A DNA stretch of 24,000 nt from Sulfurihydrogenibium sp. YO3AOP1. Its GTDB lineage: Bacteria > Aquificota > Aquificia > Aquificales > Hydrogenothermaceae. The DNA lies in assembly GCF_000020325.1 (NCBI RefSeq), contig NC_010730.1, forward strand, positions 1,712,175 through 1,736,174. Reading direction: 5' to 3'. Below, piece after piece: positions 5,285 to 24,000 of the stretch. The notes under the pieces were generated by a model that had not been told where the DNA came from, searched no databases, and saw only the letters and a list, made by a program, of their open reading frames with translations. The position numbers and the translations under genes are program-made. Within the stretch, counting starts at the first letter, position 1; each line of letters begins with the position of its first letter.

Positions 5285-5433
5285 GTATTTCGATGAGAAA
5301 TTCAGTAAAAGTATGAGATTCTTCGCTTACGCTCAGAATGACGAAATTAGATTGTTCCTTGTCATCCTGAGGATGTAAGTCCGAAGGATCTCCTTATCTA
5401 AATTCTATAAAAATCGCTAATTTCTCACTCAAG
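5285..5433. mobile_element. Foldback MITE-like repeat, copy b (forward orientation)
   Basis: Left terminal repeat gtatttcgatgagaaattc is at 5285-5303 and right terminal repeat taatttctcactcaag at 5418-5433. The internal modules are gagattcttcgcttacgctcagaatgac (5315-5342) and gtcatcctgaggatgtaagtccgaaggatctcc (5361-5393). It is flanked by an imperfect direct repeat, gttatat..acttataaaat, at 5261-5284 (24 nt) and 5433-5459 (27 nt). Confidence 0.65.
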
Positions 5434-7388: not shown

Positions 7389-10300
7389 TCAGTTATCACG
7401 TCTTATTTTAATTTTTTCAAACAATTCAAAAAGTATAGCTTGATAATCTTTTTCGCCAATTTCTACCTCATCCATAAGCTCTTCTAATTTTCTTGTAAAC
7501 TCCTCTGATAAAAACTCTCTTACATGCTTTAAGCTGTTTAAATACTGATAAACTTTTATACCCATAGAAGTTGGAAATAGTAAACCTTTCTTTTCTATTA
7601 CATATTTTCTTTCAAGAAGTTTAGCAATGATTGTTGCATATGTGGAAGGTCTTCCGATGCCTCTTTCTTTCATTCTAAATACAAGTTCCCCATGGGTAAA
7701 TGGAAATGCCTTTGGCATGATTTTAAATTGTTTATTATTACTTATATCAATTATTCCCTCTAAATCTGGATGAAGTTCGGCCGGTAATATTTTATTCCAT
7801 CCATCTTGAATAATATCTGTATGTAAAACTTTTTCTAATTCAAATCCAAAGCCTTTTATGATTACATCTTTCGCTTTAAATTTAACAGCTCTCATTTGAG
7901 AAGCTATGAAACGTTTAAAGATAAGGTCGTAAAGCTTTATATGGTCAAAGGTTAAACCTTCGTACTGACCGCTTAAAATCATGGATTTTAGCTCTTCTGT
8001 TTCCATTGCTCTTGTTGGTCTTATACATTCATGAGCTCCACCTTCTCCCCAAACTCTCGCCTGGAAATAATCCTTTCCAAATGCTTCTTCTATATACTCT
8101 CTTGCTAAAGCTATACCAACATCAGAAACTCTTGTTGAATCTGTTCTATGGTATGTAATATATCCAAGCTCAAATAGGTCTTGTGCTAATTCCATTGTTT
8201 TTGGGAGTGAAAATCTGTATCTATCGCTCGCATCTTTTAGCATTGTGTCTGTTCTGTATGGTGGAAGAGGATTTTTATCTTCTTCTTTAACTTCCTTTAC
8301 AATAATTTCAATGTTGTTTAAATTATTAAAGATATTTTCTGCATCTTGCTTGTTTTGATAGTCTATGTCCAATTCAAGCTTTTTACTGTCTTGCTGAAGT
8401 GTGATTGTTATTCTGTAAATTTTTTGCTTTCTTTCTTTTTCTCTTTCTATAATCCATCCAAGTACAGGTGTTTGAACTCTACCTGCCGAAAGCCAATTTT
8501 TACCAAAAGCTTTTTGCAGTAGCTGAGAGTATTCAAACCCAACCCATCTGTCCGCCACTCTTCTAACTATTTGTGCTTTTACTAAATTTTCATCAAAATC
8601 TCTTGGGTTTTTGATTGCATTAATGATTGCTTTTTTTGTTACTTCATGAAATTCCATTCTTTGAATATTTTTAACGTAAGGTTTTAAAAGTAGTTCAACA
8701 TCCCATCCTATCTTTTCGCCTTCTGTGTCCGGGTCTGATGCAACGTATACTTCTAAACTCTCAAAGCTTACAGACCTGATGCTTTCTATGATTTCTTCCT
8801 TTCCTTCAATTGATTCATAAACTGGCACAATATGGTCTTTCACAAAAACTCCATAATATCCAAGCTCTTTATTAAGGTCGAGAATATGACCTAAGGAGGC
8901 AGTAATCATTAAGTATCTATCATCTATTGATGTCTCTAAGATTTCATGGTCGTTTACTCTTCTTCTTACAGCTTTTCCAAAGAAGTTTGCTATAGTTCTT
9001 GCTTTGTTTGGAGATTCTACTACTATTAAAACTGGCTTTAAGATGCTTTCTACTTTCTCAAACTTAATCTCACCTTTTAGTATCTTTCTTACCTTTTCTC
9101 TGTCTGAGTCTATCTCTTTAAGAATTTTGGCTAAATCAATTGACTTAAAATCTACAAATTCAATATCATCACTAAACCATCTGACTCTCTTTTGTAGATG
9201 ATTAAAGGCTTTTTTATCGTCTATCAAAATTACTGATAATCCTTTCGTGATTCCACCGCTGTACATTCTGGAAGTTCTTCCGCTTGCTTGCAAGTATCCT
9301 GTTACATCAGATACAACAAGCTTATATCCATCTTCATCTTTTCTAAGGGTAACTTCGTTAGATTCTTTTAAAAGATTTATTATCTCTTCTGAGTTTAAAA
9401 ACTGTCCTACTTCCAATCTTAGATTGTCTACTTTTTCTTTTAGATTTGGATTGTTTTGTAAAAATTCTTCTGTTAGATACTGATATTTTTTTAATTGAGT
9501 TATCCATTTATCAATTTGGATTGCATACTGTGGAAATTTTTTCAAAATGTATGCTCTTATAGAACTAAGTGCCCAAAGTAGATGACTTAGATTTGCTTCA
9601 AATTTTAATGATAGTACGATTTTTGGAACGCCATAAAAAATTGCATATCTGATTACATGAGGAAGGTCTATACCTCTTGCCAATGGGTTTCTGTAAGAAG
9701 AGATGCCAATCAAAACATCTATCTTTCCATTTTCGTATTTCTTTAAGATTTCGTCATCAATCTCTTCATAAGTAGCAGCCTTAACTCCTTTTTTTGTTAG
9801 ATATTCTTTAACTTCTTCAACATATTCTTTCTTTTTGTCAGAAGGTATGAATACAAGTCCGCCTTTCCCAAGTTTTTTTATAAGTTCTGATAATTCGTGA
9901 TTTTCTATATCATCGTAAGAATCTACGATGTTTCTCAAGTAAAATGTTGGAGTTCCTACTTCAAAGCCAAGAAGTTCTCTAAAAAGCTTTATTCTATTTG
10001 ACTTTGGGTTTGAAGTTGCCGATGAAACTATTAGCACACCTTTTCTTTTTGCTTCTATCTTTCTAAGCTTTTCTGTAAGCTGGTTTATTTTGTTCCAATC
10101 TTCATCTGTCTTATTCTGCTTTGCTTTTAGTTTGATAACTTCTAACGCAAGGTTTATATCCTTCTCATCAAAGCCAAGTAAATAAAGTGCTTTGTCTATG
10201 TTTTTTGCGGTTTTTAAGAAGGAATCTACATCATCAACAAACACAAGAGAAAAATCTTTTGGAATCTTGTCATGATTTTTGTATAGAAACATAGAAGTTG

Positions 10301-10823
10301 TAATCAGTACAGAAAAATCTCCATCTTTAAGTCTTTCTAATTTGGCTTCTTTTTCTTTTTTGTTTTCTTCGCCAAAGAATAGGATTTGGTCTTCTTTTAG
10401 CTTGAATATCTGGGTAAGTTTTTTTACAGTTTGATTGACTAACAGCTTTGTTGGAAGGATTATGTAAGATTTTTTATTTTTTTGTGTTAAGTACGATGCA
10501 ACTGATAGACCAAAAGAAGTTTTACCTATGCCGGTAGGGGCTAAAAGTGCAAAAGAGCAATTTAAAAAAAATCTTTTAGCCCAAGTTATCTGTAAGCTCC
10601 ATGGATGAGAACCTATATGCTTGCTAAAAAAGTTTTGCCAATTACTAACTTCATCATCAATATCACATAATATTTTAAACTTTCCTTTTTTTAAAACATC
10701 ACAAACTTCTTCTTTTGGCTCTTGTGGTAAACATCTATCACAAGGTAAGCCTTTGTATAATCTTTCTGACGTAATATCTCCGCCACAGTTAGGACAGAGG
10801 TTTTTAAAAATGCTTGCTATCAT
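7389..10823 (-). CDS. rgy: Reverse gyrase (helicase-like domain fused to a type IA topoisomerase)
   Basis: 1144 aa. There is an N-terminal zinc finger (CPNCGG...CDRC), a Walker A motif (LLAPTGIGKT) and a DDVD box. The Toprim region reads VESPNKARTIANFFG...SDPDTEGEKI, and YITYHRTDS contains the catalytic tyrosine. The length and domain order are diagnostic. Confidence 0.97.
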   Translation of the reverse strand: MIASIFKNLCPNCGGDITSERLYKGLPCDRCLPQEPKEEVCDVLKKGKFKILCDIDDEVSNWQNFFSKHIGSHPWSLQITWAKRFFLNCSFALLAPTGIGKTSFGLSVASYLTQKNKKSYIILPTKLLVNQTVKKLTQIFKLKEDQILFFGEENKKEKEAKLERLKDGDFSVLITTSMFLYKNHDKIPKDFSLVFVDDVDSFLKTAKNIDKALYLLGFDEKDINLALEVIKLKAKQNKTDEDWNKINQLTEKLRKIEAKRKGVLIVSSATSNPKSNRIKLFRELLGFEVGTPTFYLRNIVDSYDDIENHELSELIKKLGKGGLVFIPSDKKKEYVEEVKEYLTKKGVKAATYEEIDDEILKKYENGKIDVLIGISSYRNPLARGIDLPHVIRYAIFYGVPKIVLSLKFEANLSHLLWALSSIRAYILKKFPQYAIQIDKWITQLKKYQYLTEEFLQNNPNLKEKVDNLRLEVGQFLNSEEIINLLKESNEVTLRKDEDGYKLVVSDVTGYLQASGRTSRMYSGGITKGLSVILIDDKKAFNHLQKRVRWFSDDIEFVDFKSIDLAKILKEIDSDREKVRKILKGEIKFEKVESILKPVLIVVESPNKARTIANFFGKAVRRRVNDHEILETSIDDRYLMITASLGHILDLNKELGYYGVFVKDHIVPVYESIEGKEEIIESIRSVSFESLEVYVASDPDTEGEKIGWDVELLLKPYVKNIQRMEFHEVTKKAIINAIKNPRDFDENLVKAQIVRRVADRWVGFEYSQLLQKAFGKNWLSAGRVQTPVLGWIIEREKERKQKIYRITITLQQDSKKLELDIDYQNKQDAENIFNNLNNIEIIVKEVKEEDKNPLPPYRTDTMLKDASDRYRFSLPKTMELAQDLFELGYITYHRTDSTRVSDVGIALAREYIEEAFGKDYFQARVWGEGGAHECIRPTRAMETEELKSMILSGQYEGLTFDHIKLYDLIFKRFIASQMRAVKFKAKDVIIKGFGFELEKVLHTDIIQDGWNKILPAELHPDLEGIIDISNNKQFKIMPKAFPFTHGELVFRMKERGIGRPSTYATIIAKLLERKYVIEKKGLLFPTSMGIKVYQYLNSLKHVREFLSEEFTRKLEELMDEVEIGEKDYQAILFELFEKIKIRRDN

Positions 10824-12268: not shown

Positions 12269-12754
12269 CTAATTAAAATTTATGCTTTTTTCTGATGTTT
12301 TTGATAAATGTCCAAACAATAAAGACGCTTCTTTGATATTTTTAGCAATATCTACTGAAAAAGATTTTAGATTTTCTAAATCTTCTTTTAGATTTTCAAG
12401 CTCCATCATGCTTTGAGCTAAAAAGTCTATTATATCTTTCTCATAAATTGTAAAATTCTCCGGAAATAATGGAGTATGGACTTCTAAAGACGGGATTGTA
12501 AAAATGATCCACGCAAGGGCACTAAGGGCTATATTACAAACGTCATCAGCTTTTTCTTTACTTTCTATTTCCGGGATTTTATTAACGATTTCTGAAATTT
12601 TATTTAGAGTCTCTGCAAAGTTGTTTAAAATAAATATTGAATCTTCCAATGATATAATACTACCTTCTTTTACTATCTTATCTATCTTCTTTTGCCCAAA
12701 GTAGATAAAAGATTCAACATCGTATATCATCAAATCAATTTTGTCTCTTATCAT
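12269..12754 (-). CDS. Hypothetical protein (161 aa) translationally coupled to fliA
   Basis: Its ATG overlaps the fliA stop in an ATGA arrangement (12754-12751), with GGAGG just upstream. The protein is predicted to be mainly helical and acidic, with one hydrophobic stretch (ALSALAWIIFTIPSL). I recognise no family. Confidence 0.6.
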   Translation of the reverse strand: MIRDKIDLMIYDVESFIYFGQKKIDKIVKEGSIISLEDSIFILNNFAETLNKISEIVNKIPEIESKEKADDVCNIALSALAWIIFTIPSLEVHTPLFPENFTIYEKDIIDFLAQSMMELENLKEDLENLKSFSVDIAKNIKEASLLFGHLSKTSEKSINFN

Positions 12755-13968: not shown

Positions 13969-13994
13969 TAGTTAGGCTTCTCCTGTTTTTACGA

Positions 13995-14012
13995 ATTTTC
14001 TATAATCTTTAT
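13995..14012. repeat. Left copy of a perfect 18-bp direct repeat flanking MITE copy c
   Basis: attttctataatctttat occurs identically at 13995-14012 and 14263-14280. The bases immediately outside the repeat differ on both sides. Confidence 0.9.
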
Positions 14013-14262
14013 ACGTCGGATGAGAAATTCAATAAAAGTAGGAGATTCTTCGTCGGCTCCAGAATGACAGAGTAGGAGTATAAAGGCGGAGATTCTTCGC
14101 TTATGCTCAGAATGACAGATTAAGGTGGCTTTGTCATCCTGAGGCTGTAAGCCGAAGGATCTCTTTCCTTGCATTACCATACCCGTCATCCTGAGGACAT
14201 AAATCCGAAGGATCTCCTTTTTAAATTCTATGAAAATCCCTAATTTCTCACCTAAAGTATGC
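14011..14262. mobile_element. Foldback MITE-like repeat, copy c (forward, nested double-module version), inserted in the 3' end of the methyltransferase gene
   Basis: Left terminal repeat atacgtcggatgagaaattc is at 14011-14030 and right terminal repeat taatttctcacctaaagtat at 14241-14260. The outer module pair is at 14041-14068 / 14185-14217. A second, complete module pair is nested inside at 14088-14116 / 14133-14163. The element is flanked by the perfect 18-bp direct repeat. Confidence 0.8.
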
Positions 14263-17200
14263 ATTTTCTATAATCTTTATTTCTTCTTCTGTTAGGCTGT
14301 AAAGCTGATATACAAGCTGGTCTATCTCATGCTCAAGATTTTTTACATGCTGTTGTTTTTCTTGGTTTGTGTCATAATCTTCAGATTGGGTAAGGGTTAG
14401 GATTTGGTCTACTTTTTGGACTATTTGGTCTGCTATGGGTTGGTTTTCTTTTGTGATTGGGGGAAGAGGAAATCTTCCTATGAATTCCCCTTTAATTTCG
14501 CCTTCTATTCCTCCTCCCATATAGAATTTGTAAAAAGCAAATTCAAAAAATTCGGAATTGAAAATACCCAAGAGATACTTACGAATATCGGAGGTATCTT
14601 CATTTGTTGTTATAAAGTGAGTTGTTGCTTCACAATAATATCCCGAAGGAACTATTGCAAACTTAGGAGATTTAGTTATTCTCTTCCACACTATCTTTTC
14701 TTTTTCAAATTCTGGGTAGTAATCGCAAGGTCTTAACTCCCACCAGTAATCACCTTGATCGTCTCGTTTAAAAAGCCCCTTACCTTTGTTTTTTACGTTA
14801 GAAAAGCTCATAAAATGATTGTATAAAGATGAAAAACTCTCTTTAAAAAACTCCTCTGGATTTTTTCTTCCTCTATGCTTGTTAGTCCAACCAGCAGGTA
14901 TAACTATAATCCACAATCCAGCCCATTTATACCTGTATTTCTCAATATCTCTACCTCTTAAAACTGGCTTAATAATTTCCTCTGTTCTCTTTCTCTCTTC
15001 TTCATCCCTACAACTTGCCAAAATCCTGTTTCGTGTTTCCGTATCTATGATAAAAGCATCGTTGTAGCCTGTTTTAATCCCAAAATAAATCTTTACGTCC
15101 CACTCTTTTAGAGGTTTTCCTACTTTTCCAATTTTTTCTTTTAAACTCAAAACACTTTCATCTCCAAGCGTCCAAGCATTATTAGAAAGCTTACTTTGAT
15201 ACATCGTTTGCCATGTTCTAAGCTCTTGCCATGTATCTACCTGAGACCAACTATCTAAATACTCAACTCCTTTCCCAGTAGCTTGCTCAATCAACTTTGA
15301 TTTGCCTTGTCTCAAATACTCATCAATATCTTCAATATCACCTTTAACCTCTAAAAACCTAAAAATATGCTCCTTGCTTGTCTTTTCCTTTCTAAAAATC
15401 AAAATATTAGTATCTACCGTTTGCTCAAAAACTTTATAACCACTAAAATCTATAATCTCTAAAATAGCTGTCTTTTCTTTTAAAAACTTTCTTAACTTCT
15501 CTCCATACTTAGCTCTCATCCATTTGTTGCTTGTTATGTATGCTAAAATTCCTTGCTCTTTTAACAAATGATAGCCTTTTTCATAGAAATAAACATAAAG
15601 GTCTGCTGTTGATGTAAAGACTTCGTAGTTTTGTTTTTGTAAAATTGGCTTAATTGGTTTTATCTTTTCCTGTCTTACATACGGCGGATTACCAATCACA
15701 ATATCAAAGCTATCAACTACTCCAAACATCCACTCTGGGTCAAACCAATCAGCAGATGCATTTTGGTCAAAAATATCAAAATTAGCTATCTTTTCAGCTA
15801 CTTTATCATTCCAACCATCGCCAATCAAAGCATTCTTTAACTTCTCTCTCAGCTCTTTATCTTTATTCTGTAATTGAATCTTTTCAGCCCTTGACTTAAT
15901 TCTAAAATATCTATGTCTTAAAAACTTCAGCTCTTGCTCTAACTTTTCAATCTCCGGATTTCTTAAAGATTTTTGAGCAGGTTTTTCCAGTCCAATCAAA
16001 GCATTTGCAGAAATAAACTTGGTCTCAAGATTTGGCAAGGTTAAAATTCCAAAGTTTGGTTTACTTCTATCTACTTTCTGGTCTAATATCAAAGATATAA
16101 AAAATCTTAGCTTGCTAATCTGTATAGCTATTGGCTGTATATCTACTCCATATATACAGTTTTCTATCAAATAAAGCTTTCTTGCATAGTCTGGATAGTT
16201 TATGCTTTCGTCAAAGTTTTCATTGATTTCTTCTAACAGCTTTTCTCTTTCTTGCTTATCTTTTTCTGATCTAAATACCGCATCTGCTTCCTTGGATGTT
16301 CTCTCTAATTGAATATCTTTCCAAATTTCATTAGACGGGTCAAGCTTTTGAAGTAAAAATACAAGCTTATGAAGAATGCCCATCGGAAAGGCACCGGAGC
16401 CACAGGCAGGGTCTATTATCTTTATCTGGTCTATTGCTTGAATTAGTTTTTTTCTTAAATCATCTGAAATGTTTGGTTCTTTATCAGAATAAGAGAATAG
16501 GTCATCAAAAATATTTTCTGCTTCTGGCACTTTTGTTTTTAGATACTCTCTTAAGCTCTCTTCTACCATGTAATCTACTATCTCTCTTGGCGTGTAGTAG
16601 CTGCCTGTTGCCTTTCTTGCTGTTGTATTAGTTTCTGGATTATAGCTTGCAAGAAGATTTTCAAATACTTTTCCAAGCAGCTCTGGGTCAAGGGCTATCT
16701 CTTGGTCTATCGGCGTTGCTTCATCTGTTGTAAAGTTATAGCTTTTTAAGATATCAATAAGTCCTCTAACCTTTGCATTTTTGCCTAAACCATACTTGGA
16801 TAAATCAACTGTTTTTTCTTCTTGGCTAAAAAACAATTCATCACTGATTTTAGCCTGCTTCTTTTCATTTCTTGAAAATCCGTCTATATAAATTTTGTCT
16901 TTATCCAAACAGTCAAAAAGTCCACCATTTATAAATGGAATATTTTTAAACAGCTCTGAAATTACTTCTTCTTTACTTATCAAAAACTTATTTTCATACC
17001 TGTATAAGCTTTTTACTCCAAAATCTTTTTTGTTTGCAGGAAAGCCTTTATCTTCTGCCCAACCTCTTTCTTTAATAGGTCTATTCAAAGTTGCAAAAAA
17101 TAGATTCTGCAAAATTGCATTGTAATAGTTATCACCTTTGCCAAAGTCTTTGACTATGTTTTTTAGCTCTTTTTCATCAAATAACTTATTTGGCACTAAA

Positions 17201-17877
17201 CCTTTTTCTTTTAAAAACCATATAAACATTAATCTTGTTAAAAGTCTGATTAAGCTTTGGGCGTTTCTGATTTCTCTGTCTTTTTCCGGGTCATCAGAGT
17301 ATTTATAATCATCAGGAAATTTAACTTTATCTAGTGCATAGTAATACCAGTTTTGAAGATCATTGTAAAAATCTCTTGTGATAGGTTGGGCGCTGAAAGC
17401 TTGCTTTATAGAGTCTAAATCTGTAAAATCACAATCTTTAAGCTGATTTATAAACGTTTTGTTTGGTAAATTTGGACTTACGTAAAATGTAAATCTTTTG
17501 TAGTGGCTATACTTTGCCTTTGTGCCATGGGTAGTCTTAAACACAAAAGAAAGTCTAAAGTTTTTATTATCATCATAAAATACAAATAGTCCATAAAACT
17601 TTTGATATCTTTCTAAAAGTCTTTTAGCAATATCAAACTGATTTTTCTTACTTGTCCTTTCTGTAAGGTTGTTAATCTTAATAGCAAAAACTACTAAATC
17701 TGCATCTTGCTTTAATCTAATGTATCCAATTTCTTTTATGTCTAATATGTTATATTTTTCTTCAATATCTTGAGTGTAATGAGCTGGGCTTATATCAACA
17801 GTAAATCCTTTGTCTAATAAGTATCTTTCTAAATTTTCAAGTGAAAAATCCTTTGCAAGGTCTGAAAGCTTATCCAT
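14248..17877 (-). CDS. Large Eco57I/PglX-like gamma-class N6-adenine DNA methyltransferase with a TaqI-C-type target-recognition domain; no recognisable nuclease motif
   Basis: 1209 aa. SAM-binding motif I is IIDPACGSGAFPMG (D489-F497, 16388-16413) and catalytic motif IV is VIGNPPYVRQE (N730-Y733, codons 15679-15690). Family-typical strings include IRLLTRLMFIWFLKEKGL, IPFINGGLF, DPELLGKVFENLL, GSYYTPREIVDYMV and LPNLETKFISANALIG. The C-terminal TRD-like region reads AFIIDTETRNRIL...IKPVLRGRDIEKYRY. The last four codons and the stop (AYFR*) are supplied by MITE copy c. Confidence 0.9.
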   Translation of the reverse strand: MDKLSDLAKDFSLENLERYLLDKGFTVDISPAHYTQDIEEKYNILDIKEIGYIRLKQDADLVVFAIKINNLTERTSKKNQFDIAKRLLERYQKFYGLFVFYDDNKNFRLSFVFKTTHGTKAKYSHYKRFTFYVSPNLPNKTFINQLKDCDFTDLDSIKQAFSAQPITRDFYNDLQNWYYYALDKVKFPDDYKYSDDPEKDREIRNAQSLIRLLTRLMFIWFLKEKGLVPNKLFDEKELKNIVKDFGKGDNYYNAILQNLFFATLNRPIKERGWAEDKGFPANKKDFGVKSLYRYENKFLISKEEVISELFKNIPFINGGLFDCLDKDKIYIDGFSRNEKKQAKISDELFFSQEEKTVDLSKYGLGKNAKVRGLIDILKSYNFTTDEATPIDQEIALDPELLGKVFENLLASYNPETNTTARKATGSYYTPREIVDYMVEESLREYLKTKVPEAENIFDDLFSYSDKEPNISDDLRKKLIQAIDQIKIIDPACGSGAFPMGILHKLVFLLQKLDPSNEIWKDIQLERTSKEADAVFRSEKDKQEREKLLEEINENFDESINYPDYARKLYLIENCIYGVDIQPIAIQISKLRFFISLILDQKVDRSKPNFGILTLPNLETKFISANALIGLEKPAQKSLRNPEIEKLEQELKFLRHRYFRIKSRAEKIQLQNKDKELREKLKNALIGDGWNDKVAEKIANFDIFDQNASADWFDPEWMFGVVDSFDIVIGNPPYVRQEKIKPIKPILQKQNYEVFTSTADLYVYFYEKGYHLLKEQGILAYITSNKWMRAKYGEKLRKFLKEKTAILEIIDFSGYKVFEQTVDTNILIFRKEKTSKEHIFRFLEVKGDIEDIDEYLRQGKSKLIEQATGKGVEYLDSWSQVDTWQELRTWQTMYQSKLSNNAWTLGDESVLSLKEKIGKVGKPLKEWDVKIYFGIKTGYNDAFIIDTETRNRILASCRDEEERKRTEEIIKPVLRGRDIEKYRYKWAGLWIIVIPAGWTNKHRGRKNPEEFFKESFSSLYNHFMSFSNVKNKGKGLFKRDDQGDYWWELRPCDYYPEFEKEKIVWKRITKSPKFAIVPSGYYCEATTHFITTNEDTSDIRKYLLGIFNSEFFEFAFYKFYMGGGIEGEIKGEFIGRFPLPPITKENQPIADQIVQKVDQILTLTQSEDYDTNQEKQQHVKNLEHEIDQLVYQLYSLTEEEIKIIENAYFR
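14263..14280. repeat. Right copy of the perfect 18-bp direct repeat flanking MITE copy c (lies inside the methyltransferase CDS)
   Basis: attttctataatctttat on the plus strand is the reverse complement of ATAAAGATTATAGAAAAT, which encodes IKIIEN near the C-terminus of the 1209-aa protein. Confidence 0.9.
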
Positions 17878-17930
17878 CGGCTGACTTTCTCAATTTTTTA
17901 ATTCAATGCAGGATATTATAGCATTTAAAT

Positions 17931-18067
17931 ATACGTTTGGTGAGAAAATCAATAAAAAACAAGAGATTCTTCGCTTCGCTCAGAATGACACCATTAGGTC
18001 GTTCTTTGTCATCCTGAGGCCGAAGGATCTCATCTGGTGGCATTCTACAAATCGGCGAAAAATCTCC
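17931..18067. repeat. Foldback repeat, copy d (forward; left terminal repeat plus three modules, degenerate right end), between the helicase and methyltransferase genes
   Basis: Left terminal repeat atacgtttggtgagaaaatc is at 17931-17950. The modules are gagattcttcgcttcgctcagaatgac (17963-17989), gtcatcctgaggccgaaggatctc (18008-18031) and cattctacaaatcggcgaaaaatctcc (18041-18067). It fills most of the 202-bp gap between the two large genes. Confidence 0.7.
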
Positions 18068-18079
18068 ACCTTTCACCTT

Positions 18080-21000
18080 CTACATCTCATCTGTAAACTT
18101 CTGATTTTCTACTGCCATAATAACTTCTTGATTTTCTAAATCTAACAATTTTAACTGACTTTCTACTCTCTCTATAAAATCTTCTCCAATCTCTTTTTTA
18201 ATCTCTTCTAACTCTTTTTTTACTTTTTCTATGTTATCAAGATGCTTTTCAATCTTGATTATTCTTTGCAAGATATACTCTGAAAGGCTTGAATACTCCT
18301 CAATATCTTTAATTAAAGCTAAAACAAAGGACCTTAACTCTCCAATGTCTCTATTTTTCAAATCGTTTAATAGGTTAAAAGCTTTTTCTTCTGTGGCTCT
18401 TGGTTTAGGTTTTCTTTTTATGTATGCTTTTTTATCAAAAACCATTTTGTAATTAGTCCAAAAATCCTTTGATATCTTTAATCTTTCTGTCTCCGGAGTA
18501 GCTTTTATCTTCTCATAAACTTCTTCAAAGCTTACTGTTTTTGGTTGTCTTTCTGCATAATCTTTATAGCCTACAAATAAGTCTTTGCCTTTTCTTATAA
18601 AGACCATAAGCTCGTTTTTGTCAGACTGCTTAGCGGTTTTTACTCTATGAGGCATGTTTTGTATTTCTTTTATAACCTCCGGATAGCTTTCTTCTATCTG
18701 ACTAAGCTCATCTCTAACTTTTGTAAAGAAGCTTTCTTCTTCATCTTCTCTGTATTCGTTTAATCTCTTGTAGAGTTTTGATGCTTCTGGCTCTTCTGAT
18801 GGGTCAAAGATTTTAGCATCTTCTCCAAGTATGCTATGAATCATAAACATCTTTGTTTGGGCTATCTGTCTTGACCTTACTATATCGGCTCCTTGTTCTG
18901 TTGGGAAGAAGTTTACTATGTATATCTCATCATATACTTTTTTGCCTATCCTGTTTATTCTTCCAACTCTTTGTATAACTCTAACAGGATTCCACGGTAT
19001 ATCGTAGTTTATAACCGCTCCTGCTCTGTTTAGGTTGTATCCTTCAGAAAGTTTATCCGTCGTAAGCAGGATTTTATATTTATCTTCTTGATGTTTATAC
19101 TGTGCATCAAAATTTTTTGCTATCTCTTCAAAGGTTGTTTTTCCTATGCTTCCATAGGCTACTAAGACTTTATTTTTAAAATGTTTTTTAAGTATTTCAT
19201 CTAAATGTTTTGCAGTATCTGTATATTCTGTAAATATGACAACTTTTCTACCTTCTTTTAAAAACTTTTCAACACCTTCTACAAGCTCATCTACCTTTGG
19301 GTCGTTTTGCGTAAGTTTTAATTCTTCCATCTTCTGTAAAAACTCATCAAACAGCTTTATGTCGTTTTGTATGTCTTTTATAAATTTGTCTTTTTGTTTA
19401 AACTTACTTAAGTCGTAAACTTTGTAATATTCAGCGTTTGTCTTTTGCTCTTTTAAATTTTGCTCATATTTTTCAAGCTCTTTTAAAATCTCATCCGGGT
19501 CTTTTTCTGTTAAATCTTCCATTAGTTTTCTATCAAGGATAAACTTATTTGTTTTTTCAATAAAATCTAAAGCTGTTTCATGAATGCTTTTAAATCTTTT
19601 TATACTTTCATAGAATGAGCCAAAGCTACTTTCAAATCTTTTAACTAAAAGCCTTCTCATAAAGTCATAAAGGTTTCTTTGATATGTAAGTAGAAAGCTT
19701 TCTTCTTCTTTTAACTTTGGCTCATCGTCATCTTTAATGCCTTTTTCATATTTAATTGGAATATAGATTGCACCTTTGAACCTTCCTCCCAGCTCTTCCT
19801 CTTTAAAAGCTGATATTACTTCATCATAAAATTCTGACTGCTCTTTTGTAAGCTTATAGAACCACTCTATTGGGTCTTTAACTTCTGGCAGGTCAATCTT
19901 TTCTTTGTAATGCTTTAAATCAAGCCTATTTCTCCTTATTACTACCGGTTCAAGTATTGACCTTATATGTCTTGCTAATTCCTTAGTCTCTGTTTTTACT
20001 TTGTCTATTTCTACCACTACATTATTTTTACCAAAAATTTCTTTATAGTAGTTTAAAGCTCTTTCTCTTTTTTTCTTGTTTGGAGAGCCATGATGGTTTT
20101 TTATGTAAGAAAGTTTATTAAAAAGGTTTTCGTACTCTTCAAATTTAGATTTAAGGTCTTCGTCAAATACAATGGTTGATTTTTTTGGTATGGTAAAGAG
20201 TTTTAAAAGTGCGAAAATGTCAGAAGGTCTGTTGTTAAAAGGTGTTGCTGTTAGAAGTAGTACTGTTTTCCCTCTGCATATCTCTTTAAGATAATGATAG
20301 CTAAGAGTATTTTCATTCCTAAATCTGTGTGCTTCGTCAACTATTACAACTTCTATGCTATCATGCTCTCTGACAAACTCTAAGGCTTTATCTAACTTTC
20401 CAACGGAGAAAGTTTCCCAGCCATACAGCTCAAAATCTTCTAAATACTTTTTCCATCCTGTAGATTTGTCATCAGGTCCAATAAGATGAGGTGGTGCTAT
20501 GGCTATACCTCTTTTTCCTAATGCCTTTGCTACCATGCATGCAACAACGGTTTTTCCAAGACCTACAACATCGGCTAAAATCGTTCCACCGTGAGATTTA
20601 CAGTTTGCAATAGCCTGAGAAACAGCTTCTATCTGATAAGAGTATGTTTTATAACCTCTTTTCGTCATAAGGTCTATAAGGTCTTTATTTATGTCTTTTG
20701 TCTTATGAGTATCAATGTATGTTTTTAGTAGATAAACATAAGCTGAAAATGGGTCTACATCTTTTAACCCAGTCTCATTTCTAATAGTATTAATTAACTT
20801 TTTCACATCATCTTCTGACAATGCTATTGAATCTTTCCATAAATCATCAAAATACTTTTCTGCTTCTTCAAATCCATAGTCTTTTATCTCAACGTTAAAC
20901 TCATTTTGGATTACAAGTCCTGCTCTTGTTAGGTTGCTGCTACCTGTTATAAAAAGATGTGGTGCTGATATTTCTTTTGTTTTAAATAGATAAAGCTTTG

Positions 21001-21409
21001 AATGATTCGGCTCCCTAGTCTTTCTTATGACTATTATTTTTTCTTCTAAAAGTTTTACAAAAAAATTAACTTGCTCGTGTATATCTTCATTATCTAGCTC
21101 TTGGCTTGTAAAAGCTATCTTTACAGAGTTTATTAAAGCTTGAAAATACTCGTCTTTACTTTTAAGCTTTGTTGCTACTTCATAGAGTCCATAGTTGTCT
21201 TTGTCTACACTTAATCCAACTAAGATTTTTATATGCTCCTGTGAAAGCTTGCCTTCGTCGTAGAGATTTTTTAAAGTTTCATAGAATTCTTTTATTCCTG
21301 AGAAATAAAAGAACCCAACGAGAAATTTTAGCTCTCTGCTGATTTCTATAAGTTCCTGCAGTCTTCTTTTAAGGTCTTTGTTTCCATGATTGGTTATAAA
21401 TGTGCTCAA
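18080..21409 (-). CDS. PLD/HKD-family nuclease domain fused to an SNF2-family SF2 helicase/translocase
   Basis: 1109 aa. The N-terminal PLD-like region contains REPNHSKLYLFKTKEISAPHLFITGSSNLTRAGL (H136, K138, GSSN 156-159; H codon at 21002-21004). The SNF2 motifs are ILADVVGLGKT (20549-20563), VIVDEAHRFRN (DEAH at 20327-20338), LLLTATPFNNRPSDIF, LTTDKLSEGYNLNRAGAVINYDIPWNPVRVIQRVGRINRIG. A C-terminal extension of about 280 aa is uncharacterised. The start is a TTG at 21409-21407 with AGAGG 9 nt upstream. Confidence 0.9.
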   Translation of the reverse strand: MSTFITNHGNKDLKRRLQELIEISRELKFLVGFFYFSGIKEFYETLKNLYDEGKLSQEHIKILVGLSVDKDNYGLYEVATKLKSKDEYFQALINSVKIAFTSQELDNEDIHEQVNFFVKLLEEKIIVIRKTREPNHSKLYLFKTKEISAPHLFITGSSNLTRAGLVIQNEFNVEIKDYGFEEAEKYFDDLWKDSIALSEDDVKKLINTIRNETGLKDVDPFSAYVYLLKTYIDTHKTKDINKDLIDLMTKRGYKTYSYQIEAVSQAIANCKSHGGTILADVVGLGKTVVACMVAKALGKRGIAIAPPHLIGPDDKSTGWKKYLEDFELYGWETFSVGKLDKALEFVREHDSIEVVIVDEAHRFRNENTLSYHYLKEICRGKTVLLLTATPFNNRPSDIFALLKLFTIPKKSTIVFDEDLKSKFEEYENLFNKLSYIKNHHGSPNKKKRERALNYYKEIFGKNNVVVEIDKVKTETKELARHIRSILEPVVIRRNRLDLKHYKEKIDLPEVKDPIEWFYKLTKEQSEFYDEVISAFKEEELGGRFKGAIYIPIKYEKGIKDDDEPKLKEEESFLLTYQRNLYDFMRRLLVKRFESSFGSFYESIKRFKSIHETALDFIEKTNKFILDRKLMEDLTEKDPDEILKELEKYEQNLKEQKTNAEYYKVYDLSKFKQKDKFIKDIQNDIKLFDEFLQKMEELKLTQNDPKVDELVEGVEKFLKEGRKVVIFTEYTDTAKHLDEILKKHFKNKVLVAYGSIGKTTFEEIAKNFDAQYKHQEDKYKILLTTDKLSEGYNLNRAGAVINYDIPWNPVRVIQRVGRINRIGKKVYDEIYIVNFFPTEQGADIVRSRQIAQTKMFMIHSILGEDAKIFDPSEEPEASKLYKRLNEYREDEEESFFTKVRDELSQIEESYPEVIKEIQNMPHRVKTAKQSDKNELMVFIRKGKDLFVGYKDYAERQPKTVSFEEVYEKIKATPETERLKISKDFWTNYKMVFDKKAYIKRKPKPRATEEKAFNLLNDLKNRDIGELRSFVLALIKDIEEYSSLSEYILQRIIKIEKHLDNIEKVKKELEEIKKEIGEDFIERVESQLKLLDLENQEVIMAVENQKFTDEM

Positions 21410-21577: not shown

Positions 21578-21586
21578 TCTTACCTT

Positions 21587-21816
21587 GCCATCCTGAGGCT
21601 GTGAAGAATCTCATTTACATCCTAATTCTGTCATTCTGAGCGTCAGCGAAGAATCTCATTTTTCATCAATTTTTAAAAAAGAGATCCTTCGGACTTACGT
21701 CCTCAGGATGACAGGAAAAGGTTGAATGATAAACATTAAAGGAAGGATAACCTATTCCGTCATTCTACAGCCGGCGAAAAATCTCATGTTTTTGTTAAAT
21801 TTCTCACCCGACGTAT
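21587..21816. repeat. Composite cluster of foldback-repeat modules, copy e (reverse orientation), ending in a single terminal repeat
   Basis: The modules are gccatcctgaggctgtgaagaatctc (21587-21612, a hybrid), gtcattctgagcgtcagcgaagaatctc (21630-21657), gagatccttcggacttacgtcctcaggatgac (21681-21712) and gtcattctacagccggcgaaaaatctc (21759-21785). The terminal repeat taaatttctcacccgacgtat is at 21796-21816. Its reverse complement, atacgtcgggtgagaaatt, matches the left terminal repeat of copy c at 18 of 19 positions. Confidence 0.7.
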
Positions 21817-22759: not shown

Positions 22760-22993
22760 ATGTCAGTTGAGCAAAGAGTAAAAGAGATTATAGCAGACCA
22801 ACTCGGTGTTGAGATGGAAAAAATCACACCTGAAGCAAGATTTGTAGATGATTTAGGGGCAGATTCCTTAGACGTAGTTGAGTTAATCATGGCTTTTGAA
22901 GAAGAGTTTGGCGTTGAAATACCCGATGAAGACGCTGAAAAAATTGCAACTGTTAAAGATGTTTTAGACTATATTAAATCAAAACAAGGGTAA
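22760..22993 (+). CDS. acpP: Acyl carrier protein
   Basis: 77 aa. [21 protein letters not shown] contains the phosphopantetheine-attachment serine. AGGAGG lies upstream of the ATG. Confidence 0.97.
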
Positions 22994-22998
22994 TAGAT

Positions 22999-24000
22999 AT
23001 GAGAAGAGTCGTCGTTACTGGTTTAGGGGCTGTAACACCAATAGGTAATAACGTAAAAGACTTTTGGTCAAATCTTGTTTCGGGCGTTAGCGGTATAGAC
23101 GTAATCAAAAGATTTGACCCAGTTGCTATAGGATTACCTGTAATCATAGCCGGGGAAGTTAAAAATCTCAATCCAGAGCAGTTTTTAGATTCCAAGGAAC
23201 TAAAAAGAATGAGTGATTTTGTTAAGTTTGCTGTAATAGCAGCAAAAGAAGCAATACAAGACTCTGGATTAGAACTTGACAAGATTGACTTAACAAAGGC
23301 TGGTGTTATAGTCGGAACCGGTATCGGCGGCTTGAGGGACATTGAAGAACAACAGAAGGTAGTAATGGAAAAAGGAGTAAGGAGAGTTTCTCCTTTCTTT
23401 ATCCCTTCTGGAATCTCTAACATGGCAGCAGGCTATATATCCATAGAGTTTGGGTTTAAAGGTCCCAACTCTTGTGTTGTAACAGCATGTGCAACAGGAA
23501 CACATTCCATTGGTGATGCATTTAAAATAATTCAAAGAGGCGATGCAGACATTATGATAGCAGGCGGAACAGAATCTGCTATTACACCACTTGGAATTGC
23601 TGGATTTGCTAACATGAAAGCTTTATCAACAAGAAACGATGAGCCTCAAAAAGCATCAAGACCATTTGATTTAGAAAGAGATGGCTTTGTAATGGGTGAA
23701 GGTGCCGGTATAGTGGTTTTAGAAGAGTTAGAACATGCAAAGAAAAGAGGAGCTAAAATTTATGCAGAAGTTGTAGGATATGGATTAACAGGTGATGCTT
23801 ACCATATCACAGCTCCATGTGCCGATGCAGACGGTGCAAAAAGAGTTATAACAATGGCTCTAAACGATGCAAGAATCAACCCAGATGAGGTTGATTATAT
23901 TAATGCTCATGGAACATCTACTCCATTAAACGACAAAATAGAAACATTGGCGATAAAAGAAGTGTTTAAAGACCACGCATACAAACTAAAAGTTAGCTCA
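22999..24000 (+). CDS. fabF: 3-oxoacyl-[acyl-carrier-protein] synthase II FabF, N-terminal 334 codons (continues beyond the window)
   Basis: Own translation from the ATG at 22999 gives [34 protein letters not shown]... The active-site region is [18 protein letters not shown], followed by later ...[13 protein letters not shown]. The ORF is open to the window edge and therefore absent from the ORF track. Confidence 0.95.

Follow-up and report, generated by a model that had tools for sequence, protein, structure and literature searches.

In a 24-kb stretch of the genome of Sulfurihydrogenibium sp. YO3AOP1 (contig NC_010730.1, positions 1,712,175 to 1,736,174; hereafter the window, within which all window coordinates are counted), we found a pair of large tandem genes, both on the minus strand, which probably encode a two-subunit ATP-dependent restriction-modification system. 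Judging from the sequences, the system would be Type III/ISP-like with the nuclease placed on the motor subunit, and we give this reading a probability of roughly two in three. One gene (18080..21409) encodes a PLD-SNF2 motor-nuclease of 1109 aa, here called the helicase, and the other (14248..17877) encodes a methyltransferase and recognition subunit of 1209 aa; both were defined from the open reading frame (ORF) list, the translations and Pfam. An earlier sequence-only reading of this DNA had given the same coordinates and lengths, and all its motif positions (HKD, GSSN, the SNF2 motifs, DPACGSGAF and NPPY) matched ours. It had also assigned the nuclease to the motor and left recognition and modification to the partner, a division of labour which is supported by the linkage of the two genes, the nuclease missing from the methyltransferase and the swaps of recognition cassettes.

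Linkage of the two genes across genomes

One genome per species was scanned for the helicase. At least 573 relatives were found among the 600 candidate stretches examined, so that the family reaches at least 573 species-representative genomes in many phyla. The best 80 loci, with helicases 42-73% identical to that of the window over the full length, were analysed. They span Aquificota, Thermodesulfobacteriota, Bacteroidota, Chloroflexota, Planctomycetota, Nitrospirota, Cloacimonadota, Bacillota, Patescibacteria, Spirochaetota and others. When all ORFs of these loci were clustered, the helicase (80/80) and the methyltransferase (57/80) were the only conserved families, and the methyltransferase lay on the same strand as the helicase in 57/57 loci. 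In all 23 loci without the methyltransferase the sequence ended beside the helicase; where at least 4 kb was available on both sides the methyltransferase was present in 32/32 loci, and with at least 8 kb in 25/25. Gene order varied and both orders occurred, the two genes being adjacent in 38 loci and separated by one to three genes in 19.

The reverse test searched metagenomic contigs with a 6-sequence alignment of the N-terminal domain of the methyltransferase (N-domain), and sampled mainly the sub-lineage in which the helicase gene is followed by the methyltransferase gene. Of 80 loci, 66 had the helicase upstream and on the strand of the methyltransferase, and 13 of the other 14 had less than 2 kb of upstream sequence. 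Co-localisation is near-obligate in both directions, and the two genes are a real conserved module.

The genes inserted between the pair in other genomes included YhcG/DUF1016, RhuM-like, Bro-N-like, AAA_14 with DUF4143, AbiEi/AbiEii, DUF6088 with AbiEii, DarT/DarG, Schlafen AlbA_2 and DUF559 (loci among L001-L162, for example L027:8136-9824, L069:8979-9989, L028:128-1796 and the gap upstream of 10007 in L083). Genes lodged in this way are cargo typical of Type I restriction operons. Gabija-like OLD and UvrD genes stood directly downstream of the methyltransferase in two loci.

The plasmid collection gave only six helicase matches, and the N-domain was present in only one record. The pair on a Parabacteroides plasmid was confirmed as a distant member, with 34% identity in the helicase and 44% in the methyltransferase including the N-domain. 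What speaks for mobility of the pair is its scatter over phyla and the existence of plasmid copies. The annotation of the Allomeiothermus silvanus plasmid pMESIL02 (L081, 2831-6161) divides the partner methyltransferase into two overlapping coding sequences (~788 and ~328 aa) upstream of the helicase; a frameshift could explain this, or the methyltransferase and recognition parts may be naturally separate.

We considered whether the pair might not be defensive at all, namely an orphan or regulatory adenine methyltransferase next to a RapA-like SNF2 remodeller working in transcription or repair. The housekeeping surroundings, the lack of a compositional anomaly, the same site in close relatives and a weak RapA similarity of the helicase (63 bits) would fit such a role. 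We regard it as very improbable in view of the defence and toxin-antitoxin cargo inside the pair, its scatter over many phyla at 42-73% identity and on plasmids, the invariant nuclease motif, and the recognition cassettes that swap between near-identical backbones.

The methyltransferase and its missing nuclease

Pfam assigned Eco57I (150 bits), N6_Mtase and TaqI_C (aa 970-1137) to the methyltransferase, in agreement with the Eco57I-type enzyme with a TaqI_C tail that the sequence-only reading had described. In the order of the gamma class, motif I, DPACGSGAF (aa 489-497, 16387-16413), precedes NPPY (aa 730-733, 15679-15690) and the recognition domain stands at the C-terminus. Four regions could be distinguished, all on the minus strand. 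The N-domain (aa 1-165, 17383..17877) is predicted to be a compact alpha/beta domain, specific to the family, in the place of a Type IIG nuclease. It is followed by a helical linker (aa 166-470, 16468..17382), defined from the secondary structure of the AlphaFold2 model and homologous to the region before the methyltransferase in Type IIG enzymes. Then come the conserved part of the gamma-class N6-adenine methyltransferase core (aa 471-749, 15631..16467), assigned by Pfam and motifs, and an exchangeable cassette (aa ~750-1150, 14428..15630) that comprises the distal methyltransferase core and the recognition domain, with TaqI_C at 14467-14970.

Over its full length the methyltransferase scored best with the PADLOC REase_MTase_IIG models (450, 372 and 364 bits), and like Type IIG enzymes it joins a gamma-class methyltransferase and a recognition domain in one chain. 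Its residues 150-450 align to positions ~310-453 of these models. Because the alignment starts only at model position ~310, the nuclease-bearing N-terminus of the models, about 300 residues, has no counterpart in the methyltransferase. Residues 1-150 had no PADLOC match, and the N-domain had no match in Pfam or PHROG. The N-domain was modelled with a mean pLDDT (predicted local distance difference test) of 92, and a Foldseek comparison of this model with the PDB gave no fold match at E<0.001, solved Type IIG, IIL and ISP enzymes included. The residues invariant across phyla are R74, Q80, F100, D102, F107, R108, S110, R128 and T141, with no D..(D/E)xK triad among them. The earlier statement that the methyltransferase carries no PD-(D/E)xK motif is borne out by the missing PADLOC match, triad and PDB match.

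In a search of 1.84 billion representative proteins the N-domain occurred in 315 clusters. Among the best 150 of these it was always N-terminal, in proteins of up to 1265 aa, and was never seen fused to the helicase. The sequence and model evidence says that this is a methyltransferase without the Type IIG nuclease, whose place appears to be taken by a family-specific domain.

These data bear directly on the possibility of a self-contained Type IIG methyltransferase, with the helicase as an optional accessory or an unrelated neighbour. Phage restriction by Cj0031, a Type IIG enzyme, was reportedly described by Anjum et al. in 2016. Solitary Cj0031-like Type IIG genes exist (PMC9881135), the Type IIG models score best over the full length, and the source of one homologue lists it as a 'type IIS restriction endonuclease'. 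However, these models match from residue ~150 only, no nuclease triad is conserved, no solved structure matches the N-domain significantly, this domain occurs essentially only beside the PLD-SNF2 gene, and all 32 assessable helicase loci contain the methyltransferase. We consider a self-contained enzyme improbable. The methyltransferase is not Type IIG, because the defining nuclease domain is absent. The REBASE-derived models in PADLOC call it Type IIG and ignore the helicase, although the nuclease is absent and the PLD-SNF2 gene is an obligatory partner.

The PLD-SNF2 helicase

The helicase gene starts with TTG, 9 nt downstream of an AAAGAGG ribosome-binding site, and the sequence FITN at the N-terminus of the protein is invariant among homologues. 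Pfam assigned PLDc_2 (aa 106-191, 33.7 bits with a cutoff of 27), SNF2-rel_dom and Helicase_C, consistent with the fusion of PLD and SNF2 parts recognised in the sequence-only reading. The single PLD/HKD nuclease domain (aa 1-200, 20810..21409, minus strand, as are all helicase domains) was delimited from PLDc_2 and the invariant motifs H136-S-K138 (20990-21004) and G156-S-S-N159 (20933-20944). The protein carries only one conserved HxK motif, and the superfamily motif HxK(x)4D...GSxN is present in one copy per chain. Sequence and profile searches of the PLD domain against PDB chains gave no match, and a sequence link to BfiI, SauUSI or MtsD (an effector treated below) was not demonstrable.

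From Pfam, alignment and motif positions, lobe 1 of the SNF2 ATPase was placed at aa 256-535 (19805..20644), with Walker A GLGKT at aa 283-287 (20549-20563), DEAH at aa 358-361 (20327-20338) and TATPFNN at aa 387-393 (20231-20251). Lobe 2, or Helicase_C, occupies aa 700-890 (18740..19312) with motif VI QRVGRINRIG at aa 813-822 (18944-18973). The PLD and SNF2 motifs were invariant in 14 homologues, 55-74% identical to the window protein, and the catalytic motifs of PLD, motor and methyltransferase were invariant in homologues 53-94% identical to the window proteins.

The C-terminal region (aa 900-1109, 18083..18712) was recognised from conserved alignment columns and had no PADLOC match. For this region and the methyltransferase N-domain the identity matrices are correlated with a rho of 0.58, and we infer that the region may be where the methyltransferase makes contact.

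The full length of the helicase is covered by a match to the phage protein family phrog_26785 (312 bits), and the deposited-phage collection gave no helicase match at E<=1e-20. The named entry 'C3a139 HKD+Snf2' was considered and rejected as the system in question; it gave 98 bits only, and it comes from Shah et al. 2018, as one of the type III CRISPR-accessory clusters.

Exchange of specificity on a constant motor

Close relatives of the methyltransferase were 90-100% identical over aa 1-720 but only 10-30% identical over aa ~750-1150, and identity returned in the last 50 residues. A drop of this shape is the signature that recognition-cassette exchange would leave in sequences. The partner helicases of these cassette-swapped relatives were 87-92% identical, evenly along the length and with no variable segment visible. 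Since the helicase stays uniform while the cassettes swap, it cannot encode a matching specificity, and recognition for both methylation and restriction must then come from the methyltransferase subunit, an arrangement also known from Type I, III and ISP systems.

This also bears on a SauUSI-like (Type IV) arrangement, in which the helicase-nuclease would find its targets alone and the methyltransferase would only protect host DNA. The layout of an N-terminal PLD domain followed by an SF2 helicase does resemble SauUSI and MtsD, and a conserved C-terminal region would be available for recognition. But the specificity of such a helicase would have to change too whenever the cassette of its partner is replaced, and its identity remains 87-92% throughout; we think there is little chance of this arrangement.

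The co-variation of the two proteins was tested with identity matrices on 43 paired loci (from L002-L077) and 2000 label permutations. The helicase matrix correlated with that of the N-domain with a rho of 0.66, a value reached in 0/2000 permutations, and with those of the methyltransferase core and the recognition cassette with a rho of 0.20 and 0.11, respectively. Across these loci the identity to the window was 44-50% for the helicase in all but one, and 25-75% for the methyltransferase core. At least two classes of core (aa 166-740) were observed, 25-30% and 40-75% identical to that of the window. Whole methyltransferase cores, beyond the cassettes alone, have been exchanged behind a conserved N-domain.

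Because the N-domain tracks the helicase while the core and the cassette do not, the N-domain travels with the motor as the rest of its own polypeptide is swapped. This supports, but does not prove, a role of the N-domain as adaptor to the helicase. Such an adaptor staying with the motor, with core and cassette swapping, would be a clear case of modular specificity switching.

Comparison with known systems

Among known systems, the pair would work most like MANTIS without its loader, or like a Type III/ISP enzyme whose nuclease is a PLD domain and whose motor is SNF2-type. MANTIS (Gao_RL, BREX-related type 2) has four genes, MtsA-MtsB-MtsC-MtsD, and MtsD is a dimer of PLD and SF2 chains with two motors and a single shared PLD site, which is needed with the methyltransferase for restriction (bioRxiv 10.64898/2026.09.23.753747). 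As in the pair, an effector with an N-terminal PLD/HKD domain and an SF2 helicase-like ATPase stands beside an adenine methyltransferase that gives the specificity; the proposed logic is translocation, then collision. Through Pfam scans we found the DUF499 AAA+ loader (MtsA) and the DUF3780 protein (MtsB) absent from the window and the 80 related loci. MtsC is an alpha-class enzyme with a central recognition domain, whereas the enzyme of the pair is gamma-class and Eco57I-like with a C-terminal TaqI_C. The helicase scored 131.5 bits on NF042964, with a cutoff of 1100 and over the helicase core only, and 78.7 bits on PADLOC PLD_Helicase over aa 703-889 only; we take these two models to represent the Gao_RL/MtsD effector. 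By its sequence the helicase is an analogue or distant relative of MtsD, not an orthologue, and is of the SNF2/DrmD-like type.

Type ISP (LlaGI, LlaBIII) and Type III (EcoP15I) enzymes contain the same four functions as the pair, namely nuclease, ATP motor, adenine methyltransferase and recognition, and Type III enzymes, too, have one subunit for motor and nuclease and another for methyltransferase and recognition. By analogy, hemimethylation and dependence on site orientation would be expected as in Type III/ISP. Type ISP enzymes combine all four in one polypeptide and use an Mrr-type nuclease, whereas the pair has two polypeptides, a PLD nuclease and an SNF2-type motor. In Type III, Res has a C-terminal PD-(D/E)xK nuclease and Mod is beta-class with an internal recognition domain, and the pair differs in nuclease, motor subfamily and methyltransferase class. 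Neither protein of the pair matched the Type ISP and Type III family models.

With Type IIG enzymes of the Eco57I/Cj0031 kind the pair shares the helical linker, the gamma-class core, the TaqI_C-type domain and cassette exchange, but their endonuclease lies in the same chain, as an N-terminal PD-(D/E)xK domain in the Eco57I, BpuSI and MmeI types, and in the pair its place is occupied by 165 aa that go with the helicase gene. Class 1 DISARM and ARMADA II also have an SNF2 protein (DrmD/ArmA) beside a PglX/Type IIG-like methyltransferase (DrmMI/ArmB) and a PLD nuclease in the system; the PLD protein of DISARM is DrmC, while in the pair the PLD domain is fused to the SNF2 protein. No YprA-type helicase DrmA, DUF1998 protein DrmB, ArmC or ArmD was found in the window or related loci, nor were the BREX proteins PglZ, BrxC, BrxL and BrxHII, so the sequence-only reading was right to report DrmA/DrmB and PglZ/BrxC/BrxL as absent. 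The DrmD model NF038317 gave 154 bits for the helicase with a cutoff of 610, PADLOC DrmMI gave 87 bits for the methyltransferase versus 450 for the Type IIG model, and PglX models gave 104 (cutoff 500) and 84 (cutoff 400). The pair is not a member of Type IIG, DISARM, BREX or MANTIS.

A BREX/DISARM-like exclusion module, blocking DNA without classical site-dependent double-strand cleavage or needing unlinked partner genes, is the strongest competing explanation of those we scored, though still unlikely. The top matches of the helicase are DrmD, BrxHI/II and DpdE and those of the methyltransferase include PglX and DrmMI models, all weakly; SNF2 proteins recur with PglX-like methyltransferases in BREX type 3, DISARM class 1, ARMADA and BREX-related systems; and cleavage is unproven for DrmC and MtsD. 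But the scores lie far under the cutoffs (DrmD 154 versus 610, PglX 104 versus 500), no third gene is conserved in 80 loci from many phyla, and the invariant PLD catalytic residues argue for an active nuclease.

The same two-gene architecture has been met before. In the Lactococcus lactis plasmid pLd8, the REBASE Type IIG protein orf34 lacks a restriction domain and the PLD domain of the neighbouring SNF2 protein was proposed as its source (orf33/orf34 pair, PMC6098607), and a survey of programmed inversions reported Cj0031-like genes with a PLD/SNF neighbour (PMC9881135). In Prevotella intermedia 17F an SNF2 gene upstream was suspected to act with Pin17FIII, which is 'Type IIG' in REBASE, methylates asymmetric GGYGAB alone in Escherichia coli (PMC5608340) and has unconfirmed homology to the window methyltransferase. 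The homology of the Lactococcus and P. intermedia cases to the present family is unverified. The sequence-only reading knew of no named system with this composition; we likewise found no name for the module in the literature searched, but the pair together with the inference was already published (PMC6098607). The module is not fully new, as the same pair and the same inference appeared in passing in 2017, 2018 and 2023. What is new here is the two-way co-occurrence, the nuclease replaced by a family-specific domain, the coupling of this domain to the helicase, and cassette exchange on a constant motor.

Proposed mechanism

According to the restriction-modification reading, the 1209-aa subunit would read a short DNA sequence through its exchangeable C-terminal cassette and put N6-methyladenine (m6A) on host sites, probably on one strand of an asymmetric site. 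At unmethylated foreign sites it would recruit or license the 1109-aa subunit, probably via the N-terminal domain. The 1109-aa subunit may act as an ATP-driven SNF2-type translocase on double-stranded DNA carrying half a PLD site. Two motors, or a motor dimer, would then assemble the PLD site and cut, with inverted sites favoured.

With a single HKD copy per chain, an active site forms in the dimer only, as in Nuc and BfiI. By analogy the helicase would dimerise through its PLD domain. Since each chain holds half a site and two copies are needed, cutting would be expected after translocation and dimerisation or collision, in a mode likened to Type III, Type ISP, SauUSI and MtsD of MANTIS. Physical interaction of the subunits, hemimethylation of asymmetric sites, dependence on site orientation, the cleavage chemistry and anti-phage activity are the inferred parts of this reading.

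Several points weigh against the proposed restriction-modification system. The PLD assignment consists of one Pfam match barely over the cutoff and the invariant motifs, and the PDB profile search was empty. The weak Foldseek matches of the N-domain (E 0.01-0.2, TM score up to 0.4) include the PD-(D/E)xK proteins Hjc, Cas4 and lambda exonuclease, and going by these models the N-domain could conceivably be a divergent nuclease. The Mantel-type correlations indicate co-inheritance, not contact. Even for MANTIS the MtsD nuclease was not reconstituted in vitro (bioRxiv 10.64898/2026.09.23.753747), and DrmC of DISARM is dispensable; these two cases mean that a PLD domain borne by the motor is no guarantee of classical double-strand cleavage.

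More tentatively, at somewhat less than even odds, we might speculate that the pair represents an unrecognised minimal class. Here a Type IIG-like methyltransferase would have swapped its nuclease for a 165-aa adaptor, through which unmethylated sites are handed to a half-PLD SNF2 motor; two motors must meet, and cores and cassettes would be exchangeable on a constant chassis. In that event annotation resources would contain hundreds of mis-assigned 'Type IIG' calls. The combination of an SNF2 protein with an adjacent PglX/Type IIG-like methyltransferase is found repeatedly, in BREX type 3, DISARM class 1, ARMADA and BREX-related systems, and the hand-over of the target to the motor is unexplained in all of them. 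The two-protein version of a thermophile would be the simplest setting in which the methyltransferase-to-motor step could be reconstituted, and would give a thermostable model for a hand-over that is unresolved in BREX, DISARM and MANTIS.

Genomic context of the pair

The rest of the window contains flagellar genes and genes for a methyl-accepting chemotaxis protein, reverse gyrase, RidA, a hisF-like protein, a fliA-like sigma factor, acpS and fabG; besides the pair no further defence-type gene was found in the 24 kb. Only reverse gyrase and the two pair genes exceed 1000 aa. The reverse gyrase (7389-10823, minus strand) has zinc finger, helicase, Toprim and topoisomerase domains. Since this enzyme marks a thermophilic host, the pair proteins should be thermostable. 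Two ORFs on the minus strand had no Pfam match, one at 12269-12754 (161 aa) and one at 22974-23423 (149 aa); the latter runs antisense to the acpP-fabF region and is unlikely to be a gene. A scan for promoters and terminators gave nothing exceeding chance.

The pair lies beside fabG-acpP-fabF, a position shared by all close relatives sampled. An exact look-up of the FabG protein gave occupied sites only and no empty site. Contig DOKW01000082.1, from a Sulfurihydrogenibium-type metagenome-assembled genome (Aquificota), matched the window. The G+C content of the window had no anomaly. For the accessory island proposed in the sequence-only reading the local evidence is weak, because the repeats around the pair are REP-like (repetitive extragenic palindrome-like) and genome-wide, the G+C content is normal and relatives keep the same site.

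REP-like repeats around the pair

A hairpin-forming repeat (GAGATYCTTCG ... GTCATYCTGAGS) was found in 12 intergenic copies in the window, with 0.23 expected by chance. The sites are 984-1041, 5331-5372, 14013-14257, 17946-18034 and 21578-21722, as located by repeat search. This short repeat looks like a genome-wide REP/MITE-like element of the organism (MITE, miniature inverted-repeat transposable element). The mobile repeats that were earlier thought to bracket the pair turned out to be this intergenic element; since it also lies between the pair genes, at 984-1041 and at 5331-5372, it delimits no island. The spacer between the pair genes (17878..18079) holds one hairpin unit (17946-18034, fold z-score -2.7), while the spacer in other genomes is 12-24 nt.

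An ORF of 91 aa (13989..14264, minus strand) overlaps the stop of the methyltransferase gene, and public assemblies also call it a gene. We considered it as a third gene of the module and rejected it, as it is made of repeat units and has no family match; it is probably spurious and is built from an array of REP-like units (14013-14257) that entered the methyltransferase gene at its 3' end. A 23-nt direct repeat (13990-14012 and 14258-14280, 21/23 identical), consisting of the 3' end of the gene itself, flanks the array. It suggests that the units were inserted with duplication of their target and that the last five methyltransferase codons were rewritten in the process; before the insertion, the methyltransferase stop would have been ~20 nt before the acpS start.

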